Shown piece by piece: positions 7,748-27,630 of a DNA stretch of 27,630 nucleotides. The stretch lies in UHGV virus genome UHGV-1949486; one strand, written 5' to 3'. This DNA is from a virus. Every line of letters begins with the position of its first letter. Within the stretch, counting starts at the first letter, position 1. Below the pieces are notes generated by a model, which was given only the letters and a program-made list of their open reading frames with translations, had not been told where the DNA came from and searched no databases. A program made the translations under genes and the position numbers.

Positions 7748-9224
7748 GCAGACGCCCCCAGATATTTGCCACAAAGAGAATGCGGGCCAGCCGTTCCTGC
7801 AGATCGTCCGTGTTCATCTGAGGGTAGAGCTCCGCCAGTTCGCCCAGCAGCTCAGACGGGTTAACCCCGTTTTCGACCCGCTTAAACAGAGGTGCCAGGA
7901 CGGGTTCCAGCGTGCCATTTAACACACCTCCGTTCATCAGAATGTCCAGCGCGTCGTCAAGCTGCTGCTGAGCCTGAATATCGGCATCAATCGCCTCGGC
8001 AAATGACAGCGGCAGCATGTTCTTCTCGCGTTCTGACGGTGGTGTCTCGTCAATATCGCCGTCCTGCAGCTGGTACTCACGCTTGAAGTATTGCGGGGTC
8101 AGACGCAGACCCGCCCGGGTGAGTTTTTCGTCGCGGGTGGCACGGGTGTCATCAATGGCCTCCTGTTCCCACATGGCCCAGACCGGACACGGCACATCGC
8201 CGAAGTTCAGGGTGACCACCGTTCTGATGACCTGATTCACTGCCGCCTGAATGATGTCCGCATCCGCATCGCGGATATCAGCCGTTACCTCCAGCCCGGC
8301 CTGTGCAGAGGCCTTGTTACTGTTCGCTTCCGTGGTCTGATTCTGACCGAGTAATGCAATGGAGATCTCACTGCGTGACAGCGTGATCAGCTCGCGGAAT
8401 ACCTCGCTGCTGTCCGCCTTGCCATCCGCGGCTTTGAGTTCGATGCTGCTGTCATCGGGGATGGCGGCCACCGCGTCCTCCACCATCTGCTCCATGGAGT
8501 CCAGCAGTTTTTCAATCTCTGCATCATTTGCACCCCTCGGGTGCTTACCGATCACCCATGGGGAGCCAAACTTTTCGGCAAAGCGGAGCCAGAATTTCAT
8601 CCCGCCTTTCTTGAAGGCGACCGGCCAGAAGCACATGGACAGGTCAGGGAAACCGTAAGGATTGTCATACGAGGCATCCTGTGCCGGCACCACGAATTTT
8701 GACGGTGACAGCAGCTCACCCTCCACACCCGCATCACGCGCCCGGAAGCGCAGGCAGTTGTCCGTATCAAACTGAAACCACTCAGGCGGTTTGCCGACAA
8801 TATCCGTCACCGCCCACGCCCTGACCGAACGGCCCCACATGATTTCACAGGGCTGATACCCGTAGAGCACGGCATCGCTCATCTCACCGATGATGCGGGA
8901 CAGATCCAGATCGTCGAGCATGTCGCGGATGAAACGGAAGACCCGGGCAGAAGCGTGACCGCGCTCCAGTCCACGCTCCAGTGATTTGAGCGCTGCTTTA
9001 CGTCTGCGGATACAGCCCCCGACCAGCGGGTCGGTGCGCAGTTCGCGGTAGATACGGATATCCCGTCCCTGAGCCTTGAGAATGGGATCAGGGTTGGGCA
9101 GGTACATTCCCAGAGCGTAAAAGTCGATGGCGCGACTGCGCGAGGCAATCTGCGCGGTCAGTGATTTTTTGGGTTCGGTGAACGCCACGAACTCATCGGG
9201 TGAAACCCAGATACCTTTTGCCAT
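7728..9224 (-). CDS. Portal protein (Mu gp29-like, DUF935 family)
   Basis: 498 aa; immediately downstream of the terminase large subunit (stop/start overlap at 9224); N-terminal region resembles Mu-type portal proteins. Confidence 0.7.
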   Translation of the reverse strand: MAKGIWVSPDEFVAFTEPKKSLTAQIASRSRAIDFYALGMYLPNPDPILKAQGRDIRIYRELRTDPLVGGCIRRRKAALKSLERGLERGHASARVFRFIRDMLDDLDLSRIIGEMSDAVLYGYQPCEIMWGRSVRAWAVTDIVGKPPEWFQFDTDNCLRFRARDAGVEGELLSPSKFVVPAQDASYDNPYGFPDLSMCFWPVAFKKGGMKFWLRFAEKFGSPWVIGKHPRGANDAEIEKLLDSMEQMVEDAVAAIPDDSSIELKAADGKADSSEVFRELITLSRSEISIALLGQNQTTEANSNKASAQAGLEVTADIRDADADIIQAAVNQVIRTVVTLNFGDVPCPVWAMWEQEAIDDTRATRDEKLTRAGLRLTPQYFKREYQLQDGDIDETPPSEREKNMLPLSFAEAIDADIQAQQQLDDALDILMNGGVLNGTLEPVLAPLFKRVENGVNPSELLGELAELYPQMNTDDLQERLARILFVANIWGRLHERDNG

Positions 9225-11725: not shown

Positions 11726-12372
11726 TTCTGTAATCCTTCCCGTTCATCCAGTAACGCGTTTATCTGGTTCCGCCAGCGACGACATTGTCCTGCGTTGTCG
11801 ATGATGTTGGCGAGAACGTCACGCTGGGAGACACCCGAATCGCGTAACCGGGTGTCAGTGGTTTCAGGTTGCCCGGTCGCTGTGCCAGAGCGGGTGCCAG
11901 CGGCGGCAACTGAGTCTGAATGACCGGTGTCGACGGATGCGTTGTCATATCCGAGTGCGGCGTTGTACTGGCGCACGAAACCGCGAGTAAACACGCACTC
12001 AATGGGATGGCTCTTACCTTTTTCATCAATCCAGCGCTGTGTGACATCGTTAATTTGCCCCTGTAGTTGTTTATTCCGGCTCTCCAGTTGAGCAATCTGC
12101 TCAAGATAACCGGCTTCAGCCCGCTGCCCGGCGGCCACCTGCTCCTGATACCGTCTGGCCCAGGCCCGCAGCGCAGCATTCTCAAGCGTTGCCTGCTCCG
12201 TTTTGTACGTGTCGAACGCTGACTGCAACTGACTGAGCGCGGTATCACCGTCACGCTTTGCAGAGTCATGACCACTTCTGTATCCCATGGCATACAGGCC
12301 GACCAGAAAGGCATTGATAAGAATGGCCAGCAGAATGCCGCGCCACGGCAGCTTTTTAACCAGATGCCACAC
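11722..12372 (-). CDS. Inner-membrane spanin (i-spanin, Rz-like)
   Basis: GTG at 12372 preceded by a GGGGAGG Shine-Dalgarno 8 nt upstream; N-terminal KK plus transmembrane helix (LPWRGILLAILINAFLVGLYAMGY) followed by a long coiled-coil periplasmic domain; directly downstream of the endolysin; contains an embedded lipoprotein ORF. Confidence 0.6.
   Translation of the reverse strand: MWHLVKKLPWRGILLAILINAFLVGLYAMGYRSGHDSAKRDGDTALSQLQSAFDTYKTEQATLENAALRAWARRYQEQVAAGQRAEAGYLEQIAQLESRNKQLQGQINDVTQRWIDEKGKSHPIECVFTRGFVRQYNAALGYDNASVDTGHSDSVAAAGTRSGTATGQPETTDTRLRDSGVSQRDVLANIIDNAGQCRRWRNQINALLDEREGLQK
11760..12026 (-). CDS. Outer-membrane spanin (o-spanin, Rz1-like lipoprotein) embedded in the i-spanin gene
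   Basis: 88-aa ORF in an alternative frame wholly inside the i-spanin gene; MKKVRAIPLSACLLAVSCAS signal with lipobox A-V-S-C; proline-rich mature part. Confidence 0.6.
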   Translation of the reverse strand: MKKVRAIPLSACLLAVSCASTTPHSDMTTHPSTPVIQTQLPPLAPALAQRPGNLKPLTPGYAIRVSPSVTFSPTSSTTQDNVVAGGTR

Positions 12373-12976
12373 AACTGCTGCCTCCCCATGTGAGATATCG
12401 CGGTGCCAGTTCGCGCAGGATGCGCTGCGGATAATGGCGGTTCTCCCGCCAGCTGGCCGCATTGCGTCCGGCATTCACCGTGGCGACATGTCCGAACCAG
12501 CGGGTGCTGTCCAGCCCCTGCTGCGAGGCCAGCCGTTTGTCCCGCTGTACCCAGCCCAGACCACCGTTATAGCCTGACAGCGTCATGGCCATACGCTCGC
12601 AGTCACTGGCGGCGCTGACGCGTTGCCACAGCCAGCGGTCATAGCTGACCAGCGCCCGGATGGCCCACGCCGGATTAAACGGTTCACGGCTGTTAAGCCC
12701 CGGCATCAGCTGACTTATCCAGTCAGCGGTGGTGGGCATAAACTGCGCCAGTCCCTGAGCGCCAGCCGGCGAGACCGCATCAGGTCGCCAGCCGCTTTCC
12801 TGATGCAGCTGCGCGGCGAAGTCGGCCACCGGCGCAGACAGTCCCCATTCAAGCCGGGCATTACGGATCACATCATCGCGATACTGCAGCGCAACCTGCG
12901 GAGGCTGCGCTGCGCATGCCTGGCTGAAAAAGCCGCCACACCAGAGCAACATTGCGACAAAGAATACCCATGCCAT
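12356..12976 (-). CDS. Endolysin: lytic transglycosylase (SLT domain) with N-terminal signal peptide or SAR-type anchor
   Basis: SLT-like catalytic region (EWGLSAP...QLHQESGWRPDAVSPAGAQGLAQFMPTTA); ATG at 12976 gives MAWVFFVAMLLWCGGFFSQACAA, a hydrophobic signal-like N-terminus; the ORF could instead start at ATG 13096 (2 nt after the holin stop). Confidence 0.7.
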   Translation of the reverse strand: MAWVFFVAMLLWCGGFFSQACAAQPPQVALQYRDDVIRNARLEWGLSAPVADFAAQLHQESGWRPDAVSPAGAQGLAQFMPTTADWISQLMPGLNSREPFNPAWAIRALVSYDRWLWQRVSAASDCERMAMTLSGYNGGLGWVQRDKRLASQQGLDSTRWFGHVATVNAGRNAASWRENRHYPQRILRELAPRYLTWGGSSCVASG

Positions 12977-13098
12977 ATGAACCAGAAAGGTCCCGGCGCG
13001 GACTGACAGGCGTTCGGTTCTGATGAAGACCCGAAAGGCTTCGAAAGCCAGTTTCAGGGACATGCATACAATCCAGGTGATCTGCGGCCAGTTCATGA

Positions 13099-13449
13099 TT
13101 AAAGCCCCATCGCAACAGCCAGACAGACAGCTGCAACAATCAGTGCACGGCGGATTAACGCAGCAGAAAATACAAGGTGAAGGCCGGTCTGCACAGGGAA
13201 ACGCCCTTCAGCCATCAGCCTGTCTTCATGTTTCAGGTACTGACCGGGACGGGCTTTGGGGAAGAGCGAACGGTCAAGCCAGTACCCCAGCACTGCTGCC
13301 AGCGTGATGAGTGCCAGCTTGTAGATCACAACAGGCAACTGCTGTGGCGAGACCAGAGCGATGATGCCCAGCAACAGCACTGAGGTCAGCAGCCAGCCGC
13401 TGAGGCGAGGTTTTTTAACAGGGGGAATGAATTTTTTCAGGTTTTTCAT
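13099..13449 (-). CDS. Putative holin-like membrane protein (first gene of the late operon in this window)
   Basis: ATG at 13449 with AGGAGA Shine-Dalgarno 7 nt upstream (long ORF to 13482 trimmed); about 116 aa with two to three hydrophobic helices; immediately upstream of the endolysin. Confidence 0.5.
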   Translation of the reverse strand: MKNLKKFIPPVKKPRLSGWLLTSVLLLGIIALVSPQQLPVVIYKLALITLAAVLGYWLDRSLFPKARPGQYLKHEDRLMAEGRFPVQTGLHLVFSAALIRRALIVAAVCLAVAMGL

Positions 13450-13671
13450 GTGTGTCTCCTCGTTTGGTGGAGACAGCATCACAAATGTGGCGGGATACGG
13501 ATTTTAAACAGCGTTAATAGTGAAGATGTAAACGTGCACTGCATGATGGCTTTGAAAGAACGACCAGCCCGGTACCCGAACACCGGGCTGGCCATCGCCC
13601 CACAGGAATGCGCTGTGAGCCGACCAAGGTTCAGTCAGTCTCGCGAGACCAGACTAGCCTGCCATATTTTT

Positions 13672-13677
13672 TATAAT
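13672..13677 (+). promoter_or_regulatory. Candidate -10 element (TATAAT) upstream of the dam gene
   Basis: TATAAT hexamer 20 nt upstream of the dam ATG; no convincing -35 found. Confidence 0.3.
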
Positions 13678-13696
13678 TGTAAAAGGCTTACAGATT

Positions 13697-14467
13697 ATGA
13701 AAATGCAGACATTACCCATCGTTCCATGGATTGGTGGCAAACGCCGCCTTGCAAAACACATCCTGCCGCTGTTTCCGGCGCATGAATGTTATGTGGAGCC
13801 GTTTTGTGGGGCAGCAGCGCTCTATTTTCTTAAGGTACCCGGCAAGATCGAAGTCATTAATGATATCAACGGTGAGCTGGTGAACCTGTATCGGGTGGTA
13901 AAACATCATCTGGAAGAATTTGTACGCCAGTTCAAATGGGCGCTGGTCAGCCGGCAGATCTACAAATGGCTGCAGATCACCCCGGAAGAAACACTGACGG
14001 ATATCCAGCGTGCAGCACGGTTCTACTACCTTCAGAAGCAGGCGTTTGGGGGCAAGGTGGCGGAGCACAGCTTTGGTACCTCCACCATATCCCCGCCACG
14101 CTTCAACCTGCTGCGTATTGAAGAAGAACTGTCAGCGGCACACCTGCGGCTTTCCAGAACGGTCATAGAACACATGGACTGGCAACAGTGCATAGAACGA
14201 TATGATCGCCCGCATACGTTGTTCTACTGTGACCCTCCATACTGGGGAACGGAAGGTTATGGTGTGGAGTTCGGACTAGAAAATTATGATCATATGGCAG
14301 ATTTAGCACGCAGGATCAAAGGGAAGATGATTATATCGGTGAACGATATCCCGGAAATGCGGCAGGCATTCAACGGTCTAAATATTCAGTCGGTTGATAT
14401 CAGCTACAACCTCAAGATCACTGGCAAATCCAGTCGCAAGAAGGAACTCATTATCCTCAACTTTTGA
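13697..14467 (+). CDS. dam: DNA adenine methyltransferase (Dam-like, D12-class N6-adenine MTase), orphan
   Basis: 256 aa; FxGxG-type AdoMet motif (EPFCGAAALYF) and catalytic DPPY motif (FYCDPPYWGTEGYG); N-terminus WIGGKRRL typical of Dam; no adjacent restriction endonuclease gene. Confidence 0.85.
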   Translation: MKMQTLPIVPWIGGKRRLAKHILPLFPAHECYVEPFCGAAALYFLKVPGKIEVINDINGELVNLYRVVKHHLEEFVRQFKWALVSRQIYKWLQITPEETLTDIQRAARFYYLQKQAFGGKVAEHSFGTSTISPPRFNLLRIEEELSAAHLRLSRTVIEHMDWQQCIERYDRPHTLFYCDPPYWGTEGYGVEFGLENYDHMADLARRIKGKMIISVNDIPEMRQAFNGLNIQSVDISYNLKITGKSSRKKELIILNF

Positions 14468-15662
14468 CCGAATAGTAAGACTTCATGCAGTGAATCAAGT
14501 ACTGCATGAAGTCAAGGGCTGGTTTTGTGTACCAAAAATAAACAGTGATAGCGGTAATAATTCCCATAACTAGAACACCACGTATAATCCAGAACGTACG
14601 TTTCTGCGTGTCTAGTCGCGCAGAAATACTGCTAAATACACCAGCCACGTCATCTTTAATGAAGGAATATTCCTTATTAATCTGTTTTTCTTTGTATTCA
14701 ATTTCTTCGCCTAAGGCCTTTATAGATTGCATCTGGTTCGAAAGTGCCAGCCAGATTAACGTTGCAGCAAAAATGCATCCCAGAAGAATTATTGTGTTTG
14801 TTATCCCTTGGCCTGACCATTTCGTAGCCACTTTGAATTGGGTAGCTACGATAACAGAGGCAACAGGAATGCCAAGTATATGGTTCTGGATATCTGAAAA
14901 CGCTTTGTGGATTTTACCCATTTCTTCGACTTTTGCAGCACGCAGTTGATCCATTACTTTGTCATAAGAGAATCCAGAAGAGTAGATACGATACCCTTTC
15001 AGAAACTTTTCATGCAGACGCTGAATATTGTCCAGTAAATAAGCGAATACTAGAGGTGAATCAATTCCATCACTAACTGCTTGAATACTTTCAATCAGAA
15101 TATCTAGCTTCTGATCCTTATGGGTATCATCATTGAAACAAGCTATAAGGTTATCAAGATACTCCCTTTGCAAATTTTGTACATTTTCTGCAGCGAAGTG
15201 CGGTAATAGCTTGATAACTTCTTTTTTCAGAAAAACTAACTGACAAGTTGAGTTATCAAAGTAGGCCGCGGCCTCTTTTAGCAGGTTAACGAACTCGAGA
15301 ATCTTCCGGTAGTTGCTGATGAAAACGGGGATATCTTCATCATCATTACGAAATTTTGTTTCTAGGATGAAGTAATTAGCTGGCTCAAGGCACTGATGCT
15401 TTGGAGCATTTAGCAATTTTTCATGGGTGGAAAACACAAGTCCCAGTCCACTCCGTGGTGACGTCACACGTAGGATGATCGTGTTACCTGGAGCGATAGT
15501 GCCTGTATCAATAGAAAGACCATATTCACGAGGATCATCAAGCAAAGTATCAACCAGATCACAATCGGACTGATCTAAGAGCAACAGCGAACCGACACGA
15601 AACCCCTCTTGGAATTCCATACGACGATACAGAGCTGTCAGCATCTCAAATGAAATCGCCAC
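14457..15662 (-). CDS. Uncharacterised protein with two C-terminal transmembrane helices; downstream partner of the YejK/NdpA-like gene (candidate effector of a two-gene accessory system)
   Basis: 401-aa ORF starting 2 nt after the upstream gene stop; hydrophobic helices GITNTIILLGCIFAATLIWLALS and FWIIRGVLVMGIITAITVYFWY near the C-terminus; AT-rich codon usage unlike flanking phage genes; no family recognised by eye. Confidence 0.6.
   Translation of the reverse strand: MAISFEMLTALYRRMEFQEGFRVGSLLLLDQSDCDLVDTLLDDPREYGLSIDTGTIAPGNTIILRVTSPRSGLGLVFSTHEKLLNAPKHQCLEPANYFILETKFRNDDEDIPVFISNYRKILEFVNLLKEAAAYFDNSTCQLVFLKKEVIKLLPHFAAENVQNLQREYLDNLIACFNDDTHKDQKLDILIESIQAVSDGIDSPLVFAYLLDNIQRLHEKFLKGYRIYSSGFSYDKVMDQLRAAKVEEMGKIHKAFSDIQNHILGIPVASVIVATQFKVATKWSGQGITNTIILLGCIFAATLIWLALSNQMQSIKALGEEIEYKEKQINKEYSFIKDDVAGVFSSISARLDTQKRTFWIIRGVLVMGIITAITVYFWYTKPALDFMQYLIHCMKSYYSVKS
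14479..14513. terminator. Perfect 13-bp-stem hairpin (9-nt loop) at the convergence of dam and the 401-aa gene; candidate bidirectional terminator
   Basis: GACTTCATGCAGT gaatcaagt ACTGCATGAAGTC read directly; a T-rich tract (GGTTTTGTGT) lies 7 nt downstream on the plus strand; overlaps the last 18 codons of the minus-strand gene. Confidence 0.5.
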
Positions 15663-15664
15663 GA

Positions 15665-16672
15665 TTAAACCTCAGTCATCCACATTTCCCTAAATTCTTC
15701 AGGTACATTACGTAGGGTGATAATATTTGTTTCCGGATCATAATCAATATAGCCTTCAGTTTTCCCTTCCCGGTCAAACTTAAGTTCCCAATATTTAGAC
15801 TTGCCTTTAAAAGATACCAGAGCCCGAATGACTCGACCATCAGGAACGAAGCCATCCGATAACTCCAACTCTTCAGCAGCAAGTTTACCAGATAACTCCT
15901 CGGGAGCCTGGGGCCAAATGGCATTAACAAGGGTTTCAAGACTAAGTGGTTCACCAGCCTTACTTAGTGCATGTAAGTGTTCAAACGCACTCTTAAGAAA
16001 TGCATCTTTTTCAGCGCCGTCAAGTCCTTTCTCTGCCGCAAATGCTTTTAAAACGTCACGTAACTTTTCAGACTCTCGTTTGGCGATTAAGACATCATTA
16101 CAGCCTAGGAACTGTTTAAAATAGTTTGAAACATTACCTTGCCCCTTAAGAAAACTGATATAGCGCTCTGCGCCACTTTCCCACGCGGTTAAGTCAATGC
16201 GCCCAGCCATACGCAGCTTAGCAATATCAAGATAGGTACTATCTTGGATGTTAAAATCATCTGTGACAGTGGACCCAATGGTAGCGCTTACAATAGCTAT
16301 CAACAGGTGTTCATTGTGTCCTATCACGATATTTGCAAAAAGAACATAACCACCAGTAGCCATGTTTTCTCGCTGAGAACGTTCCGTCAGGTGATGCATC
16401 ATTCGGCAGGAACTTTGGTAGAAATCATCAACACCTTCGAGAAAGTCCCCAGCCATTCGTTCCATAGGATAGTTATCCGTATCGCCTTCAAAATAGCCAT
16501 AACCTTTACCTGTGCGTCCTGCATATTTTGCACAAATATCGTTTATAAGGCGCTGAGAGGCTTCAGTAACTAGACCTTCTTCAGGACTCAATCTCTCAGA
16601 AGCGTCTCCATTTTGTTGTTTGTCTAAAATGTGAACTACAACGTGTTTAACTTCAATGGTCTGCTCAGACAT
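15665..16672 (-). CDS. YejK/NdpA-family nucleoid-associated-protein homolog (phage-borne)
   Basis: 335 aa, same length as E. coli YejK; recognisable family blocks (HVVVHILDK, GGYVLFA, HLLIAIV, RIDLTAWESGAERYISFLKGQG) matching YejK as recalled from memory; strong AGGTGG Shine-Dalgarno 7 nt upstream of the ATG at 16672; AT-rich. Confidence 0.7.
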   Translation of the reverse strand: MSEQTIEVKHVVVHILDKQQNGDASERLSPEEGLVTEASQRLINDICAKYAGRTGKGYGYFEGDTDNYPMERMAGDFLEGVDDFYQSSCRMMHHLTERSQRENMATGGYVLFANIVIGHNEHLLIAIVSATIGSTVTDDFNIQDSTYLDIAKLRMAGRIDLTAWESGAERYISFLKGQGNVSNYFKQFLGCNDVLIAKRESEKLRDVLKAFAAEKGLDGAEKDAFLKSAFEHLHALSKAGEPLSLETLVNAIWPQAPEELSGKLAAEELELSDGFVPDGRVIRALVSFKGKSKYWELKFDREGKTEGYIDYDPETNIITLRNVPEEFREMWMTEV

Positions 16673-16742
16673 TGGCTATCCACCTTATTTTTTATTGCTT
16701 AATGGCAAATAATTTCTGCTATATGTTCTCGTTAGGAACACA

Positions 16743-17150
16743 TTAACCCACATTTTTTAACCGCTCAATCGTTGCGGATAATTCCTTCAGTTGTTTTTCC
16801 ATCTCAATCACACGCTGTTTTTCTTCAGCGCCTCGCATGAGATCTCGCCGAACCTCAGGATCTAACTGGTTTAGAAGTTCAAGCATTTTAAGGTCTGACG
16901 GGCTGAATTGATGTTGTGTTGGTACAGCAACAATTTCTTTAGATGGAATATGTTCTTTACCGGTAAGTAGCCAATCGATTGATACACCCAAATGGGTACT
17001 TAGCGCAACAAGAGCCTCTGCGTTTGGTTCTCTCTCTCCACGCAAATAGTTTTGAAGTGAGCGATATGGAATTTTTGATAAGTCAGATAATGCCTTTATT
17101 GTCATGCCATTAGCATCCATCACTTCACGCAATCTCTCTTTTGTACTCAT
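16743..17150 (-). CDS. Prophage repressor, XRE-family helix-turn-helix (c/CI-like)
   Basis: HTH segment (MTIKALSDLSKIPYRSLQNYLRGEREPNAEALVALSTHLGVSIDWLL); divergent from the early operon; start placed at the internal ATG 17150 (MSTKERL...) because the longer ORF to 17246 would run through the early promoter. Confidence 0.7.
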   Translation of the reverse strand: MSTKERLREVMDANGMTIKALSDLSKIPYRSLQNYLRGEREPNAEALVALSTHLGVSIDWLLTGKEHIPSKEIVAVPTQHQFSPSDLKMLELLNQLDPEVRRDLMRGAEEKQRVIEMEKQLKELSATIERLKNVG

Positions 17151-17166
17151 TTGAACATATCTCAAT

Positions 17167-17194
17167 TTGACACACTCATTTGGGTGTGTACAAT
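17167..17194 (+). promoter_or_regulatory. Early promoter (Pe-like): TTGACA, 16-nt spacer, TACAAT, with an operator-like dyad ACACAC/GTGTGT in the spacer
   Basis: Hexamers read directly at 17167-17172 and 17189-17194; inverted repeat 17170-17175 / 17184-17189; sits between the divergent repressor and ner-like genes. Confidence 0.55.
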
Positions 17195-17238
17195 AGACCC
17201 AATAGAGTACATCATAACCTAACAGGAACACGGTGCAT

Positions 17239-17463
17239 ATGAACAAACAACAAGTTCGGGCACGGCTGGTTGAACGAGGCAGTAGCTTGCGCCAGTTCGC
17301 GCTTAACGCGGGCTATGAACCACGAACAGTCACCCAGGCAGTCAGTCGCTGGGCTGGTAAAAGTGAACTACCTCGCGGTCGTTTGACTTATCGGATTTTG
17401 CGAGATCTATCGGTTGCAATAGGTAAAGAAGTTACCCCCGGTATCCTTAAGGAGGCGTCATGA
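17239..17463 (+). CDS. ner: Ner-like DNA-binding protein (Mu Ner / Nlp family)
   Basis: Similarity to Mu Ner core (SLRQFALNAGYEPRTVTQAVSRW); first early gene; ATG at 17239 preferred over GTG at 17233 on AGGA spacing. Confidence 0.7.
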   Translation: MNKQQVRARLVERGSSLRQFALNAGYEPRTVTQAVSRWAGKSELPRGRLTYRILRDLSVAIGKEVTPGILKEAS

Positions 17464-17768
17464 ATAAACCAAATACATCAAGCTCAGGTATCCGTATTTT
17501 GCGCGTTCTTAAGGCCTTACGTGGCCACGCTTTGAACGGTGTTTCTAACGGGGAACTAGCGGTTGCACTGCACGAATCACCGGCAAACATCAACCGGGCA
17601 CTTAACACGCTCATTGAAGAAGGGTTGGCTCTGAAACTAGAAAACGGGCGTTTCGCACCAGGCATCCAGTTGCTGCAGATCGCCATGGCCCACAGTAACG
17701 AGATGGCACGTGCACAGGATCGCATTAACGAAATCAACCAACGTGTTATTTCAGGTAGTCGTTTGTAA
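17460..17768 (+). CDS. Putative winged-helix DNA-binding protein (hypothetical early protein)
   Basis: 102 aa; AAGGAGG Shine-Dalgarno; ATGA overlap with ner stop; HTH-like segment NGVSNGELAVALHESPANINRALNTLIEEGL. Confidence 0.5.
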   Translation: MNKPNTSSSGIRILRVLKALRGHALNGVSNGELAVALHESPANINRALNTLIEEGLALKLENGRFAPGIQLLQIAMAHSNEMARAQDRINEINQRVISGSRL

Positions 17769-17778
17769 GGAGTAATCA

Positions 17779-18690
17779 ATGGGACGCACCAAATCACCGG
17801 TTAGCACTGAACTGAACGTCGAGGTACCGCTGTCGGATGATCTCAATGTCAGTCTAAACGCCATGACACAGCATCGCATGGAAATCATGCAACAGTTCGG
17901 CGATGGTCTGCCTTATGAGCGCGATCGTGTTGTCCATGAGGCACGCTTTTATATGGCACAGAGCGCTGAGGCCATGCTGGAGGCAGGTAAGCGGCTGATA
18001 ATCCTTAAGGAAAATGAACCACACGGGGAGTTTATAAAGATTCTTGAAAGTGAGTTGGGGCTGGCATACCGGACATCTGTGAGAATGATGCAAGCATCGA
18101 CAAAATACTTATCCCCGGCGCTGAAACCAAATGTGCCAACGTTGGCACATTTGGGAAAAGCCAAACTTTTCGAATTAATGACAGAAGACGACGAAGAGCT
18201 TGCCGAACTGGCCGACGGCGGCACAGTTGCCGGCCTGACGCTTGACGACGTTGATCGCATGTCAGTACGCGAACTTCGCCAGGCCCTGCGCGAAGCGCGC
18301 GAAACCAACGCAGCACAACAGCGCGTACTCGCCGATAAAAATGAAAAAATTGATTCTCTCTCTACCAGACTGGAAAAGAAATCCCGTATTCAGCTGCCTG
18401 AGCCTGATGAGGAGGTTAAGAAGCTGCGGGCGGAAGTGACAGCATTAGCGGTTGAGGCGGAATCTGCCATCGCCGTTCGACTGTCCAGCGCTTTTGAGAC
18501 ACTGTGCGCATATTGTGCTGAAAACATGATTGATACCCCCAGAGACTTCATGGCAGGCCTGGTCTGTCAACTGGAAAGCACAGCGCGTAGCCTGCGCTCC
18601 ACATTTGACCTGCCGGACGAGCCAACAGGCGATGTCGCGCCTTCATGGCTGACTGAGCCGACGCCACAGATTAACGGGCTGGAGGCATAA
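17779..18690 (+). CDS. Hypothetical early protein (303 aa)
   Basis: AAGGAG Shine-Dalgarno; acidic and coiled-coil-rich; no catalytic motif recognised. Confidence 0.5.
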   Translation: MGRTKSPVSTELNVEVPLSDDLNVSLNAMTQHRMEIMQQFGDGLPYERDRVVHEARFYMAQSAEAMLEAGKRLIILKENEPHGEFIKILESELGLAYRTSVRMMQASTKYLSPALKPNVPTLAHLGKAKLFELMTEDDEELAELADGGTVAGLTLDDVDRMSVRELRQALREARETNAAQQRVLADKNEKIDSLSTRLEKKSRIQLPEPDEEVKKLRAEVTALAVEAESAIAVRLSSAFETLCAYCAENMIDTPRDFMAGLVCQLESTARSLRSTFDLPDEPTGDVAPSWLTEPTPQINGLEA

Positions 18691-18693
18691 CCA

Positions 18694-20463
18694 ATGAATG
18701 CTGCCCTGACTGAACGACTGGTTTATGTCGCCCGCGCGGCACGTGACGCGGGGCATGGTAAACGCGGTGCAATATACGACGCTGCCTGTGCTGAACTTGG
18801 CATGTCCCGCGCCACTCTGCTGCGCAGGCTGAAGGAGGTCTCTGTGACTGATAAACGCAAAAAACGCGCCGATGCCGGGCGCAGCGCCCTGACCCGCGAC
18901 GAAGCCGCGCTGATATCTGCCACACTGCGTGAGGCCACCCGCAAGAACGGTAAGCGTCTCTATTCCATCGCAGATGCAGTGGAAACCCTGCGGGCTAACG
19001 GCTTTATCTCCGCAGGCAGAACAGATGAAACCACCGGTGAGTTTTTCCCGTTGTCCGAAGATGCCATCAGCCGTGCCCTGCGTAACTATGGCCTGCACCC
19101 GGAACAACTGGATGCCCCTGCGCCGCATACCGAAGTGGCCAGTCTGCATCCCAATCACGTCTGGCAGATTGATGCCTCGCTCTGCACGCTTTACTACCTG
19201 AGCAATGGACACAAAGGGCTGCAGGTGATGGACAGCGCGAAATTCTACAAGAACAAGCCCGCTAACCTTGCCCGTATCGCCAGTGACCGCGTGTGGAGTT
19301 ATGAGATTACCGACCATGCCAGCGGCTGGATTTACGTTGAGTATGTGACGGGTGCGGAATCCGGTGAGAACCTGTGTTCTGTGCTTATCAACGCCATGCA
19401 GGAGCGTGGCGGCGCAGACGTGCTGCACGGCGTGCCAAAAATACTCTATCTCGACCCCGGCTCGGCAAACACCGCGGGTATGACGAAAAACATGTGCCGC
19501 TCACTGGGCATTGACCTGATAGCGCACAAGCCGCATAACGCCCGCGCCACCGGACAGGTGGAAAAGGCGCGGGACATTATCGAACGCAAGCTGGAGCCGG
19601 GTCTGAAGTTCCGGCCGGTTCACAGTCTGGAAGAACTCAACGCGCTGGCCGCGAAATGGCGCAGCCACTTTAACGCCACGGCTGTTCACAGCCGCCACGG
19701 TAAAACCCGCACGGATATCTGGCTGAAGATTACTGCTGAGCAGCTGAAAAAAGCGCCTTCCGTTGAGGTATGTCGTGAACTGGCTGTGGCGGCACCAGAA
19801 CTCCGCAAAGTCACGCCAAAACTTCGTGTCTCGTTCCGGGGCACTGAATTTGACGTATCAACGGTACCGGGCGTACTGGTTGGTGAAAAACTGATGATTA
19901 CCCGTAACCCATGGCGCAGCGATGTGGCACAGGTGGTTCTGACCGGTGAGGACGGCCACGAGACGTTCTTCCTGGTCGAAGAGGTCAGAAAGAACGAGTT
20001 TGGCTTTGCTGAAGGCGCGGCGGTATTTGGCGAAAGTTACAAAGCCCTGCCGGAAACCCCGGCACAGATGGCGGCAAAAGAAACTGAAGCGCTGGTTACC
20101 GGTACAGACAACGCCGCAGATGCAGCCGCCGCACGCAAGGCGAAGGCGCTGCCGTTCGGCGGGCGGGCTGACCCGCATAAACATAACCACGAAACACTGC
20201 TGCCGGCCTATATGCCGAAGCGTGGTCAGGCCTCTGACGTACGCGGGCCGCGCACTGAACAACGTCCCATGACTCATGTGGAGGCCGCGAAAGCCCTGCG
20301 CGATAAGTTCAGCGCCGACGGCCTTACCTGGACGCCGGAACATTACCGCCAGTTAACGGCACAGTACCCGGACGGCGTACCGGAAGCCGCACTGGATGAA
20401 GTCATGGCCACGCTGACCACACCGGCCAGCAGCAGTGTTATCAGCATAGTTAACGGCAACTGA
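18694..20463 (+). CDS. DDE transposase (Mu A-like / retroviral-integrase-fold catalytic core)
   Basis: 589 aa; candidate catalytic triad blocks HVWQIDAS, ILYLDPGSANT and ATGQVEKARD in the order and spacing of Mu A D-D-E residues; followed by an ATPase gene. Confidence 0.85.
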   Translation: MNAALTERLVYVARAARDAGHGKRGAIYDAACAELGMSRATLLRRLKEVSVTDKRKKRADAGRSALTRDEAALISATLREATRKNGKRLYSIADAVETLRANGFISAGRTDETTGEFFPLSEDAISRALRNYGLHPEQLDAPAPHTEVASLHPNHVWQIDASLCTLYYLSNGHKGLQVMDSAKFYKNKPANLARIASDRVWSYEITDHASGWIYVEYVTGAESGENLCSVLINAMQERGGADVLHGVPKILYLDPGSANTAGMTKNMCRSLGIDLIAHKPHNARATGQVEKARDIIERKLEPGLKFRPVHSLEELNALAAKWRSHFNATAVHSRHGKTRTDIWLKITAEQLKKAPSVEVCRELAVAAPELRKVTPKLRVSFRGTEFDVSTVPGVLVGEKLMITRNPWRSDVAQVVLTGEDGHETFFLVEEVRKNEFGFAEGAAVFGESYKALPETPAQMAAKETEALVTGTDNAADAAAARKAKALPFGGRADPHKHNHETLLPAYMPKRGQASDVRGPRTEQRPMTHVEAAKALRDKFSADGLTWTPEHYRQLTAQYPDGVPEAALDEVMATLTTPASSSVISIVNGN

Positions 20464-25605: not shown

Positions 25606-26238
25606 ATGTTTGACGTTTCGTTGTTAAATCTGCCATGGGCAACACTGGTGACCCTGACCAGTGGCTATATTGGGTATTTTATTGCGAATGTGGGACTGAA
25701 GGATCACCACAAGCCCATTGAGGTGACTTTTTCTTCGCTGATTTTTGGCCTGACAGCAATGATGGCTTACCAGGCTGTTATGTGGGCAGGTCTGAATGCC
25801 TGGCTGGCAACACCACCAGCACTTCTGTGTGCCGTTACATGCGGTGCGTGGTGGCGCAGGTACGGTCGCAAATGGATGTACAGATTACTGTGGAATAATG
25901 ATGTTTCATGGTCTGACGATACCAGCTCAGCATGGCAGGCAATGTTTGATCAAACAGGCTTCAGCGTTACCGAGGTCAGAGTGATTCTTCGCGATGGTTC
26001 CGGTATGATGTCACGGCTGCCAGGGAACTTTGAAGAGTGGCCTAACGGTCCGTTTACCCTGGGGAATAAAGGCGATATGGTTCTTTACGTCACGCACAGC
26101 AGCCCTTCAGGCAGTAACGAATGGGAAGAGTATAAAGGCGTGGTTGATAAGTACTGGGGAGCTCTGGCAACCTATATTCCAGCAGATCAGATTGCCAGAG
26201 TGGAGATCAGGCGCGTTCGTGCAACGAACGATGAATGA
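25606..26238 (+). CDS. Membrane protein of unknown function; terminal moron-like accessory gene
   Basis: Start moved to ATG 25606 (GGGAG Shine-Dalgarno) because the ORF-track start 25528 would translate through the terminator hairpin; about 210 aa with two to three N-terminal hydrophobic helices and a soluble C-terminal domain; lies between the terminator and the prophage end. Confidence 0.55.
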   Translation: MFDVSLLNLPWATLVTLTSGYIGYFIANVGLKDHHKPIEVTFSSLIFGLTAMMAYQAVMWAGLNAWLATPPALLCAVTCGAWWRRYGRKWMYRLLWNNDVSWSDDTSSAWQAMFDQTGFSVTEVRVILRDGSGMMSRLPGNFEEWPNGPFTLGNKGDMVLYVTHSSPSGSNEWEEYKGVVDKYWGALATYIPADQIARVEIRRVRATNDE

Positions 26239-26556
26239 TGTTTATTTTTTCCCTGGGGCAGGGGCTGCCGGCATAGTGGTTTTATTGGCAGAGGAAGACG
26301 ATTCTCCTTTTCTACCGGAATCGCGCTCGAACGTCACGATGTGCTTGCTTTTGGGCTTTTCTGAGTAATCCAGGCTATCATGCTTATTGTTTTGAGTAGT
26401 CATTGGAATCATCCTTTTTGTTGCGGGTCATGTTTCAGCAAACTCGATTCTAAGTTGCCAGGAAGGATGATTTCAATGCCCGACTTATCTATCGTATAGC
26501 GGAAAAGAATTTCAGTTCTGTTCACCAGAACCCATGTTAACCCACTCCAATTCGTT

Positions 26557-26664: not shown

Positions 26665-27630
26665 ATGCTGCTGACCAAAGGTGTCGAGTTAAGCGGTTAT
26701 TTTGATGTGCTGGGGCGCAAAATGGTGCGCCGTTTTGCTACGGAGCGTCGGCTGGCGATGTTTATGGTACTGGCGGCAGCGCTGCTTTCTACCTTTCTGA
26801 CCAACGATGTCGCACTGTTTATAGTTGTTCCGCTGACTATCACGCTAAAAAGACTGTGTGAGATTCCGGTTAATCGGCTGATTATTTTTGAGGCGCTGGC
26901 AGTCAACGCTGGTTCGCTACTGACGCCAATTGGCAACCCGCAAAATATTCTTATCTGGGGACGTTCTGGTCTTTCGTTTGCCGGATTTATTGCCCAAATG
27001 GCACCGCTGGCTGGCGCAATGATGCTGACACTCCTGCTGTTGTGCTGGTGTTGTTTCCCTGGAAAGGCGCTGCAATACCATACGGGGGTGCAAACGCCGG
27101 AGTGGAAACCGCGGCTGGTGTGGAGTTGTCTGGGGCTGTATATCGTCTTTCTGACGGCGCTGGAGTTAAAACAAGAGCTGTGGGGACTGGTGATTGTGGC
27201 GGCGGGCTTTGCGCTGCTGGCGCGTCGTGTGGTGCTCAGTGTGGACTGGACGCTGCTGCTGGTGTTTATGGCGATGTTTATCGACGTCCATTTACTAACC
27301 CAACTGCCAGTTTTGCAGGGGGTGTTAAGTAACGTGAGTCATTTATCCGAACCCGGATTATGGTTAACGGCGATCGGTTTATCGCAGGTGATCAGTAACG
27401 TGCCGAGTACCATTTTGCTGCTCAATTATGTGCCACCGTCTTTATTACTGGCATGGGCGGTAAACGTGGGGGGCTTTGGTTTATTACCCGGATCGCTGGC
27501 AAATTTGATTGCGTTACGGATGGCGAACGATCGCCGTATCTGGTGGCGTTTTCATCTTTATTCGATACCGATGCTGTTGTGGGCGGCGCTGGTGGGATAT
27601 GTTTTGTTGGTTATGATCCCGGCGGGATAA
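26665..27630 (+). CDS. ArsB/NhaD-superfamily inner-membrane permease (YbiR-like), host gene; probably 5-prime truncated by the prophage insertion
   Basis: 321-aa ORF made of successive hydrophobic helices; different base composition from the prophage; same frame stays open upstream to about 26500 with no start codon, encoding ...FAPKSWPAAIDWHTIITLSGLMLLTKG; family assignment from memory. Confidence 0.6.
   Translation: MLLTKGVELSGYFDVLGRKMVRRFATERRLAMFMVLAAALLSTFLTNDVALFIVVPLTITLKRLCEIPVNRLIIFEALAVNAGSLLTPIGNPQNILIWGRSGLSFAGFIAQMAPLAGAMMLTLLLLCWCCFPGKALQYHTGVQTPEWKPRLVWSCLGLYIVFLTALELKQELWGLVIVAAGFALLARRVVLSVDWTLLLVFMAMFIDVHLLTQLPVLQGVLSNVSHLSEPGLWLTAIGLSQVISNVPSTILLLNYVPPSLLLAWAVNVGGFGLLPGSLANLIALRMANDRRIWWRFHLYSIPMLLWAALVGYVLLVMIPAG

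Follow-up and report, generated by a model that had tools for sequence, protein, structure and literature searches.

What do two genes placed directly behind the repressor of a transposable prophage do for the element that carries them? The question is raised by the viral DNA UHGV-1949486, a stretch of 27,630 nucleotides (nt) that was analyzed as a whole and is referred to here as the window. The window belongs to a transposable, Mu-like prophage (BcepMu-type) of Escherichia coli, and between its immunity and lysis modules lies a pair of genes encoding a protein of 335 amino acids (aa) related to the nucleoid-associated protein YejK and a 401-aa partner with a hydrophobic C-terminus. From sequence homology and from analogy with known systems, we consider it likely that the pair is a prophage cargo cassette (a moron) encoding a two-component anti-phage system of the DS-1 or type II PANGU kind. 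It would be a divergent member of a named kind of system that was validated in 2025–26. An earlier sequence-only reading had proposed an undescribed module; this was not borne out, as the same kind of system has been named both as DS-1 and as type II PANGU.

The two proteins and their homology to DS-1

The pair and the regions of its second protein occupy the following positions.

15665..16672, minus strand: NA37/YejK-like nucleoid-associated protein, 335 aa, identified by PF04245; proposed sensor (DS-1A/Pag2A-like)
15663..15664, minus strand: 2-nt spacer between the NA37 and partner genes, read from the sequence
14457..15662, minus strand: membrane partner, 401 aa, GTG start, identified by phrog_5023 and DS1_2 matches; proposed effector (DS-1B/Pag2B-like)
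14898..15662, minus strand: soluble N-terminal region of the partner, aa 1–255, delimited by AlphaFold2 (AF2) secondary structure and charge
14541..14879, minus strand: hydrophobic helices of the partner, aa 262–280, 290–308, and 356–374, from hydropathy

Both open reading frames (ORFs) and the gap between them are as the sequence-only reading had given them, and RefSeq makes the same two gene calls in identical E. coli prophages. A GAGG sequence 8 nt ahead of the partner's GTG start, within the end of the NA37 gene, suggests translational coupling of the two genes.

The 335-aa protein matched Pfam PF04245 (NA37) with an E value of 1e-80 and 272 bits (gathering cut-off 24.6), residues 12–327 aligning to profile positions 1–324 of 325 and thus over the full length. 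The NdpA-family assignment expected for it was therefore found. It also matched phrog_3767, "nucleoid associated protein" (E 7e-117), and aligned over its entire length with 9be2, a solved structure of YejK (E 6.8e-30). Identity to E. coli K-12 YejK was 27.5% over the full length. Against the YejK equivalog NF001557, the protein scored 186 bits, under the cut-off of 341, and it is thus a paralogue rather than a second copy of the host gene. An AF2 model of the NA37 protein built without an alignment was unusable (predicted local distance difference test [pLDDT] score, 37), and the homology to 9be2 was used instead.

In DS-1, two genes together confer phage protection on E. coli (DefensePredictor, Science 2026, PMC13092281). 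Its first protein, DS-1A (WP_000355468.1, 391 aa), consists of a zinc ribbon and an NA37 domain, beginning MDITCLECGN...CDKCG, with the NA37 domain starting at residue 42; the second, DS-1B (WP_000150292.1), has 404 aa, with two transmembrane segments apparently listed for it in the published table (PMC13092281). The genes lie at 220602-221777 and 221780-222994, a gap of 2 nt (PMC13092281). Carried in MG1655 under its native promoter, DS-1 lowered plating, with −log efficiency of plating (EOP) values of 7.6 for Bas1, 2.7 for Bas26, 1.7 for Bas3, 1.7 for T3, 1.0 for T5, and 0.9 for T7 (PMC13092281). An NA37 homologue with 40% identity was also predicted by DefensePredictor to be a novel defense gene, with log-odds of 11.7 (PMC13092281).

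Sequence comparison shows both window proteins to be homologous to DS-1A and DS-1B, with remote similarity. NCBIfam release 20 holds the models NF053868 DS1_1_antiphage ("nucleoid-associated anti-phage protein") and NF053869 DS1_2_antiphage; the NA37 protein matched the former with an E value of 1.4e-17 and 63.7 bits (cut-off 330) and the partner matched the latter with an E value of 3e-21 and 75.9 bits (cut-off 315). The DS1_2 model was matched by all 88 of the partner-family members tested (best E 3.3e-29). By BLASTP, the NA37 protein shared 23% identity with DS-1A (E 8e-9), and the partner shared 23% identity with DS-1B over 302 aa (E 6e-10). No model in PADLOC v2 matched the NA37 protein, DS-1A, or DS-1B.

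The partner was assigned to phrog_5023 (E 1.9e-142), and no Pfam family was found for it. Two C-terminal transmembrane helices had been proposed; the hydrophobic C-terminus stands, with three segments rather than two, since hydropathy gave two strong segments (residues 290–308 and 356–374) and a third that is weaker but highly conserved (262–280). An AF2 model built on 88 homologues (mean pLDDT, 80.7) comprises an alpha/beta domain at residues 1–175, a helical region, and then very long C-terminal helices. The N-terminal 255 residues carry a net charge of −10 with an isoelectric point of 5.1, the family median charge being −9 (range, −16 to −2). By analogy with PANGU Pag2B, this region is a candidate docking ("DNA-mimic"-like) domain for the NA37 protein. 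The most conserved motif of the family lies ahead of the helices, GFSYDK...KIHKxFSDIQNQILGIPVA(T/S)VIVATQ, and the invariant columns are F231, S232, Y233, K235, I258, Q259, P266, A268, T274, K277, G295, N309, and Q310. A PDB sequence search with the partner profile returned no match.

Conservation and spread of the gene pair

We then examined how far the two genes travel together. A word-indexed search found 166 close relatives of the partner, and 1,299 cluster representatives came out of an exhaustive profile search at an E value of ≤1e-3 (406 at 1e-30), giving a family of ~1,300 clusters at 50% identity. In a scan of species-representative genomes, 59 partner loci were detected across gamma-, beta-, and alpha-proteobacteria and a few other lineages. 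An NA37 gene lay immediately upstream on the same strand at 56 of the 59, which is to say at every full-length partner gene; the other three records all show one truncated, C-terminal remnant from Cupriavidus. The pairing was also kept in 14 of 14 further annotated places. The pair is thus conserved as a unit, as the sequence-only reading required, and is found beside known defense genes. At 69 loci, the NA37/partner junction was a short gap or overlap (median, −8 nt). The two proteins diverged in step, their identities running from 100/100 to 33/26%. Ratios of non-synonymous to synonymous substitution (dN/dS) between 0.035 and 0.09 (0.035–0.040 for the NA37 gene and 0.07–0.09 for the partner gene) indicate strong purifying selection on both genes.

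The Cupriavidus remnant (~7992-8618 of its loci) covers partner residues 191–392 at 44% identity and has no NA37 gene. It adjoins genes for a nitrilase-like protein and a major facilitator superfamily (MFS) transporter, and appears to be decayed and on a plasmid-like replicon.

The pair moves between unrelated elements. Mu-like relatives of the window prophage in Mixta, Brenneria, Pectobacterium, Chitinimonas, and Jeongeupia carry it at the equivalent site, and lambdoid prophages in Salmonella, Citrobacter, Proteus, and Serratia carry it, in either orientation, between the Q antiterminator and holin genes. In non-phage islands, it was found beside BrxR and JetABCD (Wadjet), between NACHT and nSTAND3 genes, and near a gene for an Mrr-type nuclease. 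At least 13 of the 59 loci were detectably embedded in prophages, a count that is a lower bound, the reference panel being enterobacterial. Partner homologues were present in 6 of 50,697 phage records and 6 of 72,556 plasmid records.

Two of these settings carry further features. Jeongeupia wiesaeckerbachi has two copies of one Mu-like prophage, each with the pair, at two chromosomal sites, which fits transposition or double lysogeny. A lambdoid prophage of Citrobacter freundii with the pair (12039-17155 of its locus) also has a colicin-domain gene and an SLFN/AlbA_2 gene, and in one C. freundii genome the same prophage additionally has a reverse-transcriptase gene adjoining a gene for an SMC-like ATPase; the prophage thus stacks several candidate defense or competition genes.

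Within E. coli, the cassette is an occasional occupant of its slot. A related prophage region was present in 637 of 5,426 complete genomes, and only 19 of these 637 had the pair; other prophages have different, uncharacterized genes in the same place. The interval from the holin gene to the ner-like gene (window positions 13483-17232) is a hypervariable cargo slot in related E. coli and Klebsiella prophages. Its other contents include a gene pair for 328-aa and 193-aa proteins that overlaps the repressor gene, a gene for a DUF2441 protein, a gene annotated "ABC transporter ATPase," and a pair for 297-aa and 114-aa proteins. None of these other cargo genes had a defense match in PADLOC or NCBIfam, so the slot is variable but not shown to be a known defense slot. 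They are candidates for further unknown lysogeny-expressed functions.

Prophage layout, expression, and base composition

The leftward arm of the prophage holds the late and lysis genes and the rightward arm the early operon, with a ner-like gene, a transposase gene, a MuB-like gene, gam, and mor. Four genes stand between the arms: dam, the partner gene, the NA37 gene, and a gene for an XRE/DicA-like repressor. The features that border the pair are listed below.

13697..14467, plus strand: Dam-family N6-adenine methyltransferase (PF02086, E 7e-28; TIGR00571 above cut-off)
16673..16742, minus strand: leader of 70 nt from the repressor stop to the NA37 start, with the Shine-Dalgarno sequence AAGGTGG
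16743..17150, minus strand: XRE/DicA-like prophage repressor, 135 aa from the ATG used by RefSeq (PF01381, E 5.9e-12; Phage_CI_repr)

The repressor, which also matches the DicA and RstR subfamilies, is upstream of the pair and reads in the same direction, so the placement claimed at first sight, directly downstream of and co-directional with an XRE repressor, was confirmed across the 70-nt spacer. On the other side, dam converges on the partner gene and the 3′ ends overlap by 11 nt (14457-14467), leaving no room for a terminator between the cassette and dam. The dam gene bounds the cassette and is no part of the two-gene system.

The leader was also inspected for expression signals. A search for a terminator-like site found none in the 70 nt, the predicted fold was not significant (z, −0.55), and a search for a promoter of its own gave only weak consensus matches at chance frequency. 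A good Shine-Dalgarno sequence without terminator or fold makes read-through from the repressor transcript plausible, and the pair is probably expressed in the lysogen in this way. About 65 nt of the leader are conserved with the cassette in a differently arranged Klebsiella prophage, despite a different upstream gene.

Base composition sets the region apart. Guanine plus cytosine (GC) content, as computed, was 41.5% for the pair, 57.8% for the left flank, and 53.3% for the right flank, and GC at third codon positions (GC3) was 0.35–0.39 in the pair versus 0.58–0.69 in dam and the genes for the transposase and the lysin. The repressor is equally AT-rich (41.2% GC; GC3, 0.32). The AT-rich block therefore spans ~14457-17250 and comprises the immunity gene together with the cargo. 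The contrast with GC-rich flanks that had been judged by eye is real, but the block extends beyond the cargo to which it had been assigned. The repressors of related prophages are either 76–92% identical or undetectable, as expected for immunity swapping.

The cargo (14457-16672) is 100% identical to sequences in the chromosomes of several E. coli strains, and in strain N61 the region corresponding to 13000-18700 is identical to the window. Elsewhere in the window, a second patch of lower GC (47–48%) lies at 25606-26412, at the right prophage end after mor. It encodes a 210-aa protein with N-terminal hydrophobic segments and has a 56-aa ORF on the opposite strand, neither of which matched NCBIfam or PADLOC, and a further moron may be present here. 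An ORF that runs off the right end (26665-27630) encodes an anion/ion permease-like membrane protein with weak DASS and NhaB matches. In E. coli M-17, an otherwise identical prophage is flanked by rstB, and the differing flanks are consistent with the random insertion expected of a transposable phage.

Proposed function and relation to known systems

A route by which such a pair might act is offered by the PANGU operons, in which phage-induced degradation of the genome is sensed by a YejK-like nucleoid protein, PagA, that departs from the nucleoid to bind and activate an effector (bioRxiv 10.64898/2026.04.06.716658, April 2026). Type II PANGU consists of the nucleoid protein Pag2A and of Pag2B, whose N-terminal (DMK) domain is acidic and "DNA-mimicking" and whose C-terminus forms a transmembrane domain (10.64898/2026.04.06.716658). 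In an E. coli type II system, both genes were required, and protection from T4 was abortive (10.64898/2026.04.06.716658). Pag2A fused to green fluorescent protein (GFP) went from the nucleoid to a diffuse distribution on T4 infection, Pag2A bound the acidic domain with a dissociation constant (KD) of 19 nM, and neither PANGU operons nor their single genes were toxic on expression (10.64898/2026.04.06.716658).

We propose the following steps for the window pair by homology and analogy. In the lysogen, where both proteins would be made, the YejK-like NA37 protein would reside on chromosomal DNA. A superinfecting phage that degrades or disrupts the host nucleoid would free it, and the freed protein would bind the acidic N-terminal domain of the membrane partner. 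The C-terminal hydrophobic helices of the partner might then damage or depolarize the inner membrane, halting the infected cell before the invader's cycle ends (abortive infection) and protecting the lysogen population and the resident prophage. The initial guess of a lysogeny-linked defense module with a DNA-binding sensor and a membrane effector is well supported by the homology to DS-1 and the architecture of type II PANGU. No support was found for the other suggestion made at that stage, a counter-defense or nucleoid-remodeling factor.

Several observations weigh against this interpretation. Both window proteins are far under the DS-1 equivalog cut-offs, which makes them significant homologues and not equivalogs, and the N-terminal CxxC...CxxC zinc ribbon of DS-1A is absent from the window protein, which has no CxxC pair. 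The RefSeq accessions of the pair were not found in the DefensePredictor supplementary tables as far as these were searched, which includes the complete table of 94 tested operons. It is by architecture that the pair would belong to type II PANGU, and the preprint itself calls both the activation of Pag2B by type II nucleoid-associated proteins and the action of Pag2B unresolved (10.64898/2026.04.06.716658). PANGU-Ecu and DS-1 stop different phages (10.64898/2026.04.06.716658; PMC13092281), so triggers may differ within the family. The N-terminal acidity of the partner is modest and not specific. A Foldseek search of the partner model against the PDB gave nothing significant (best E 0.19), and since the fold searches yielded no informative structural relative of the effector, its membrane activity is a guess. 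Finally, a Mu-like phage disrupts the host chromosome in its own lytic cycle and should risk triggering the system itself.

The components could also work in the manner of Kiwa, which likewise has two genes, for a membrane protein with four transmembrane segments (KwaA) and a non-specific DNA-binding protein (KwaB). The membrane protein would then sense envelope perturbation at DNA entry and activate or position the NA37 protein, which would coat the incoming DNA and block its replication without killing the cell. The shared component logic is joined by a weak KwaA match at partner residues 262–394 (E 8e-5), and the very strong effect of DS-1 on Bas1 is compatible with direct immunity. The KwaA model, however, matched only 4–5 of the 88 partner-family members and did not match DS-1B, the NA37 protein had no DUF4868 or KwaB match, and no Kiwa chain was among the 50 PDB matches that Foldseek listed for the partner model. 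Homology to Kiwa was accordingly rejected, the KwaA match being upheld neither across the family or in DS-1B nor in the fold searches. Kiwa also differs in its reversed gene order, in that KwaB is a DUF4868 protein and not NA37, and in not being abortive, whereas the type II PANGU protein sits on the nucleoid, becomes diffuse upon infection, and leads to an abortive outcome. We regard a Kiwa-like mode of action as improbable.

The position of the pair between the immunity and lysis modules, adjoining the holin gene, raises the thought of a role in the life cycle of the phage itself, in which a nucleoid protein with a membrane tether would aid lysogeny, transposition, or chromosome handling, or would time lysis. 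Host YejK is a general DNA-binding protein, and in lambdoid prophages of Proteus the pair is read in the same direction as the late and lysis genes. Such a role is quite improbable, given the patchy presence of the pair, which is missing from 618 of the 637 E. coli genomes with the related prophage region, and its mobility between unrelated elements: unrelated types of phage carry it, as do defense islands outside phages, its orientation to phage genes varies, and partner homologues are rare among phage records. Being bicistronic, compact, and mobile between genetic elements, and encoding a protein that is probably membrane-active, the cassette might also be read as an addiction or toxin-like module that stabilizes the prophage and plays no specific part against other phages. 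The absence of toxicity from PANGU operons and single genes, the phage-specific protection given by the homologous DS-1 pair, and the rarity of the partner family on plasmids all make this very improbable.

Within the preferred interpretation, an anti-phage system of the DS-1 or type II PANGU kind, the window pair could even be identical with PANGU-Ecu, or it could form another branch. A bolder and doubtful version is that this clade, with no zinc ribbon, nearer to YejK, and in a repressor-linked cassette, forms a functionally distinct branch of nucleoid-protein defenses with a trigger of its own. Such a branch, on the same doubtful footing, would also need a built-in means not to fire during the replicative transposition of its own phage; repressor-coupled shut-off and a phage-encoded antidote are possibilities. 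If true, it would show a genome-integrity sensor coexisting with a host phage that disrupts chromosomes, and an effector with no recognizable fold relative might reveal a new membrane-active mechanism.

The idea that nucleoid-associated proteins serve bacterial immunity as sentinels of chromosome integrity is very recent. At this locus, a probable sentinel-type system is carried as temperate-phage cargo, in the repressor slot of a Mu-like prophage and, elsewhere, in the Q-holin slot of lambdoid ones, and the locus introduces a large, strictly paired family that is only remotely related to the single validated E. coli example whose sequence was compared, DS-1. It offers a test case for how the effector acts, how broad the trigger is, and how a prophage avoids setting off its own alarm.

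Compared with chromosomal YejK/NdpA, the window protein has the same domain and the same 335-aa length and aligns over the full length, but its gene is prophage-borne and operon-coupled to a membrane partner, whereas the K-12 yejK gene has the oppositely oriented neighbors rplY and yejL and hence no co-directional partner. In phage lambda, superinfection is aborted by RexA, a cytoplasmic sensor, together with RexB, a membrane effector. The window pair resembles lambda cI-rexA-rexB in that its genes lie directly behind the repressor, co-directional with it, and in the logic of a cytoplasmic sensor with a membrane effector. The rexAB-like arrangement put forward in the sequence-only reading holds for the position in this prophage; it is not conserved for the cassette, since the Mu-like prophage of a Klebsiella has dam, inverted, between the pair and the repressor, with the pair just upstream of the holin gene, and lambdoid prophages have the pair in the Q-holin slot. 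No RexA or RexB homology appeared among the Pfam and PADLOC matches of the window proteins, and the analogy is functional and, in this prophage, positional, reflecting no homology.

The closest likenesses are to the two recently named systems. Like DS-1, the pair has an NA37 gene first, a 2-nt gap, and then a protein of ~400 aa with C-terminal hydrophobic helices, and the partner shares with DS-1B the conserved motif FS-x-(D/N)K...IP-x-A, which precedes the first of the hydrophobic helices, although the window NA37 protein is nearer to host YejK than to DS-1A. Like type II PANGU, it is a bicistronic operon with a YejK-like nucleoid protein and a partner with C-terminal hydrophobic or transmembrane segments, to which the modest acidity of the N-terminal region may add a further likeness, and it resides on mobile elements and adjoins defense genes in the manner of PANGU operons, one example of which comes from E. 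coli.

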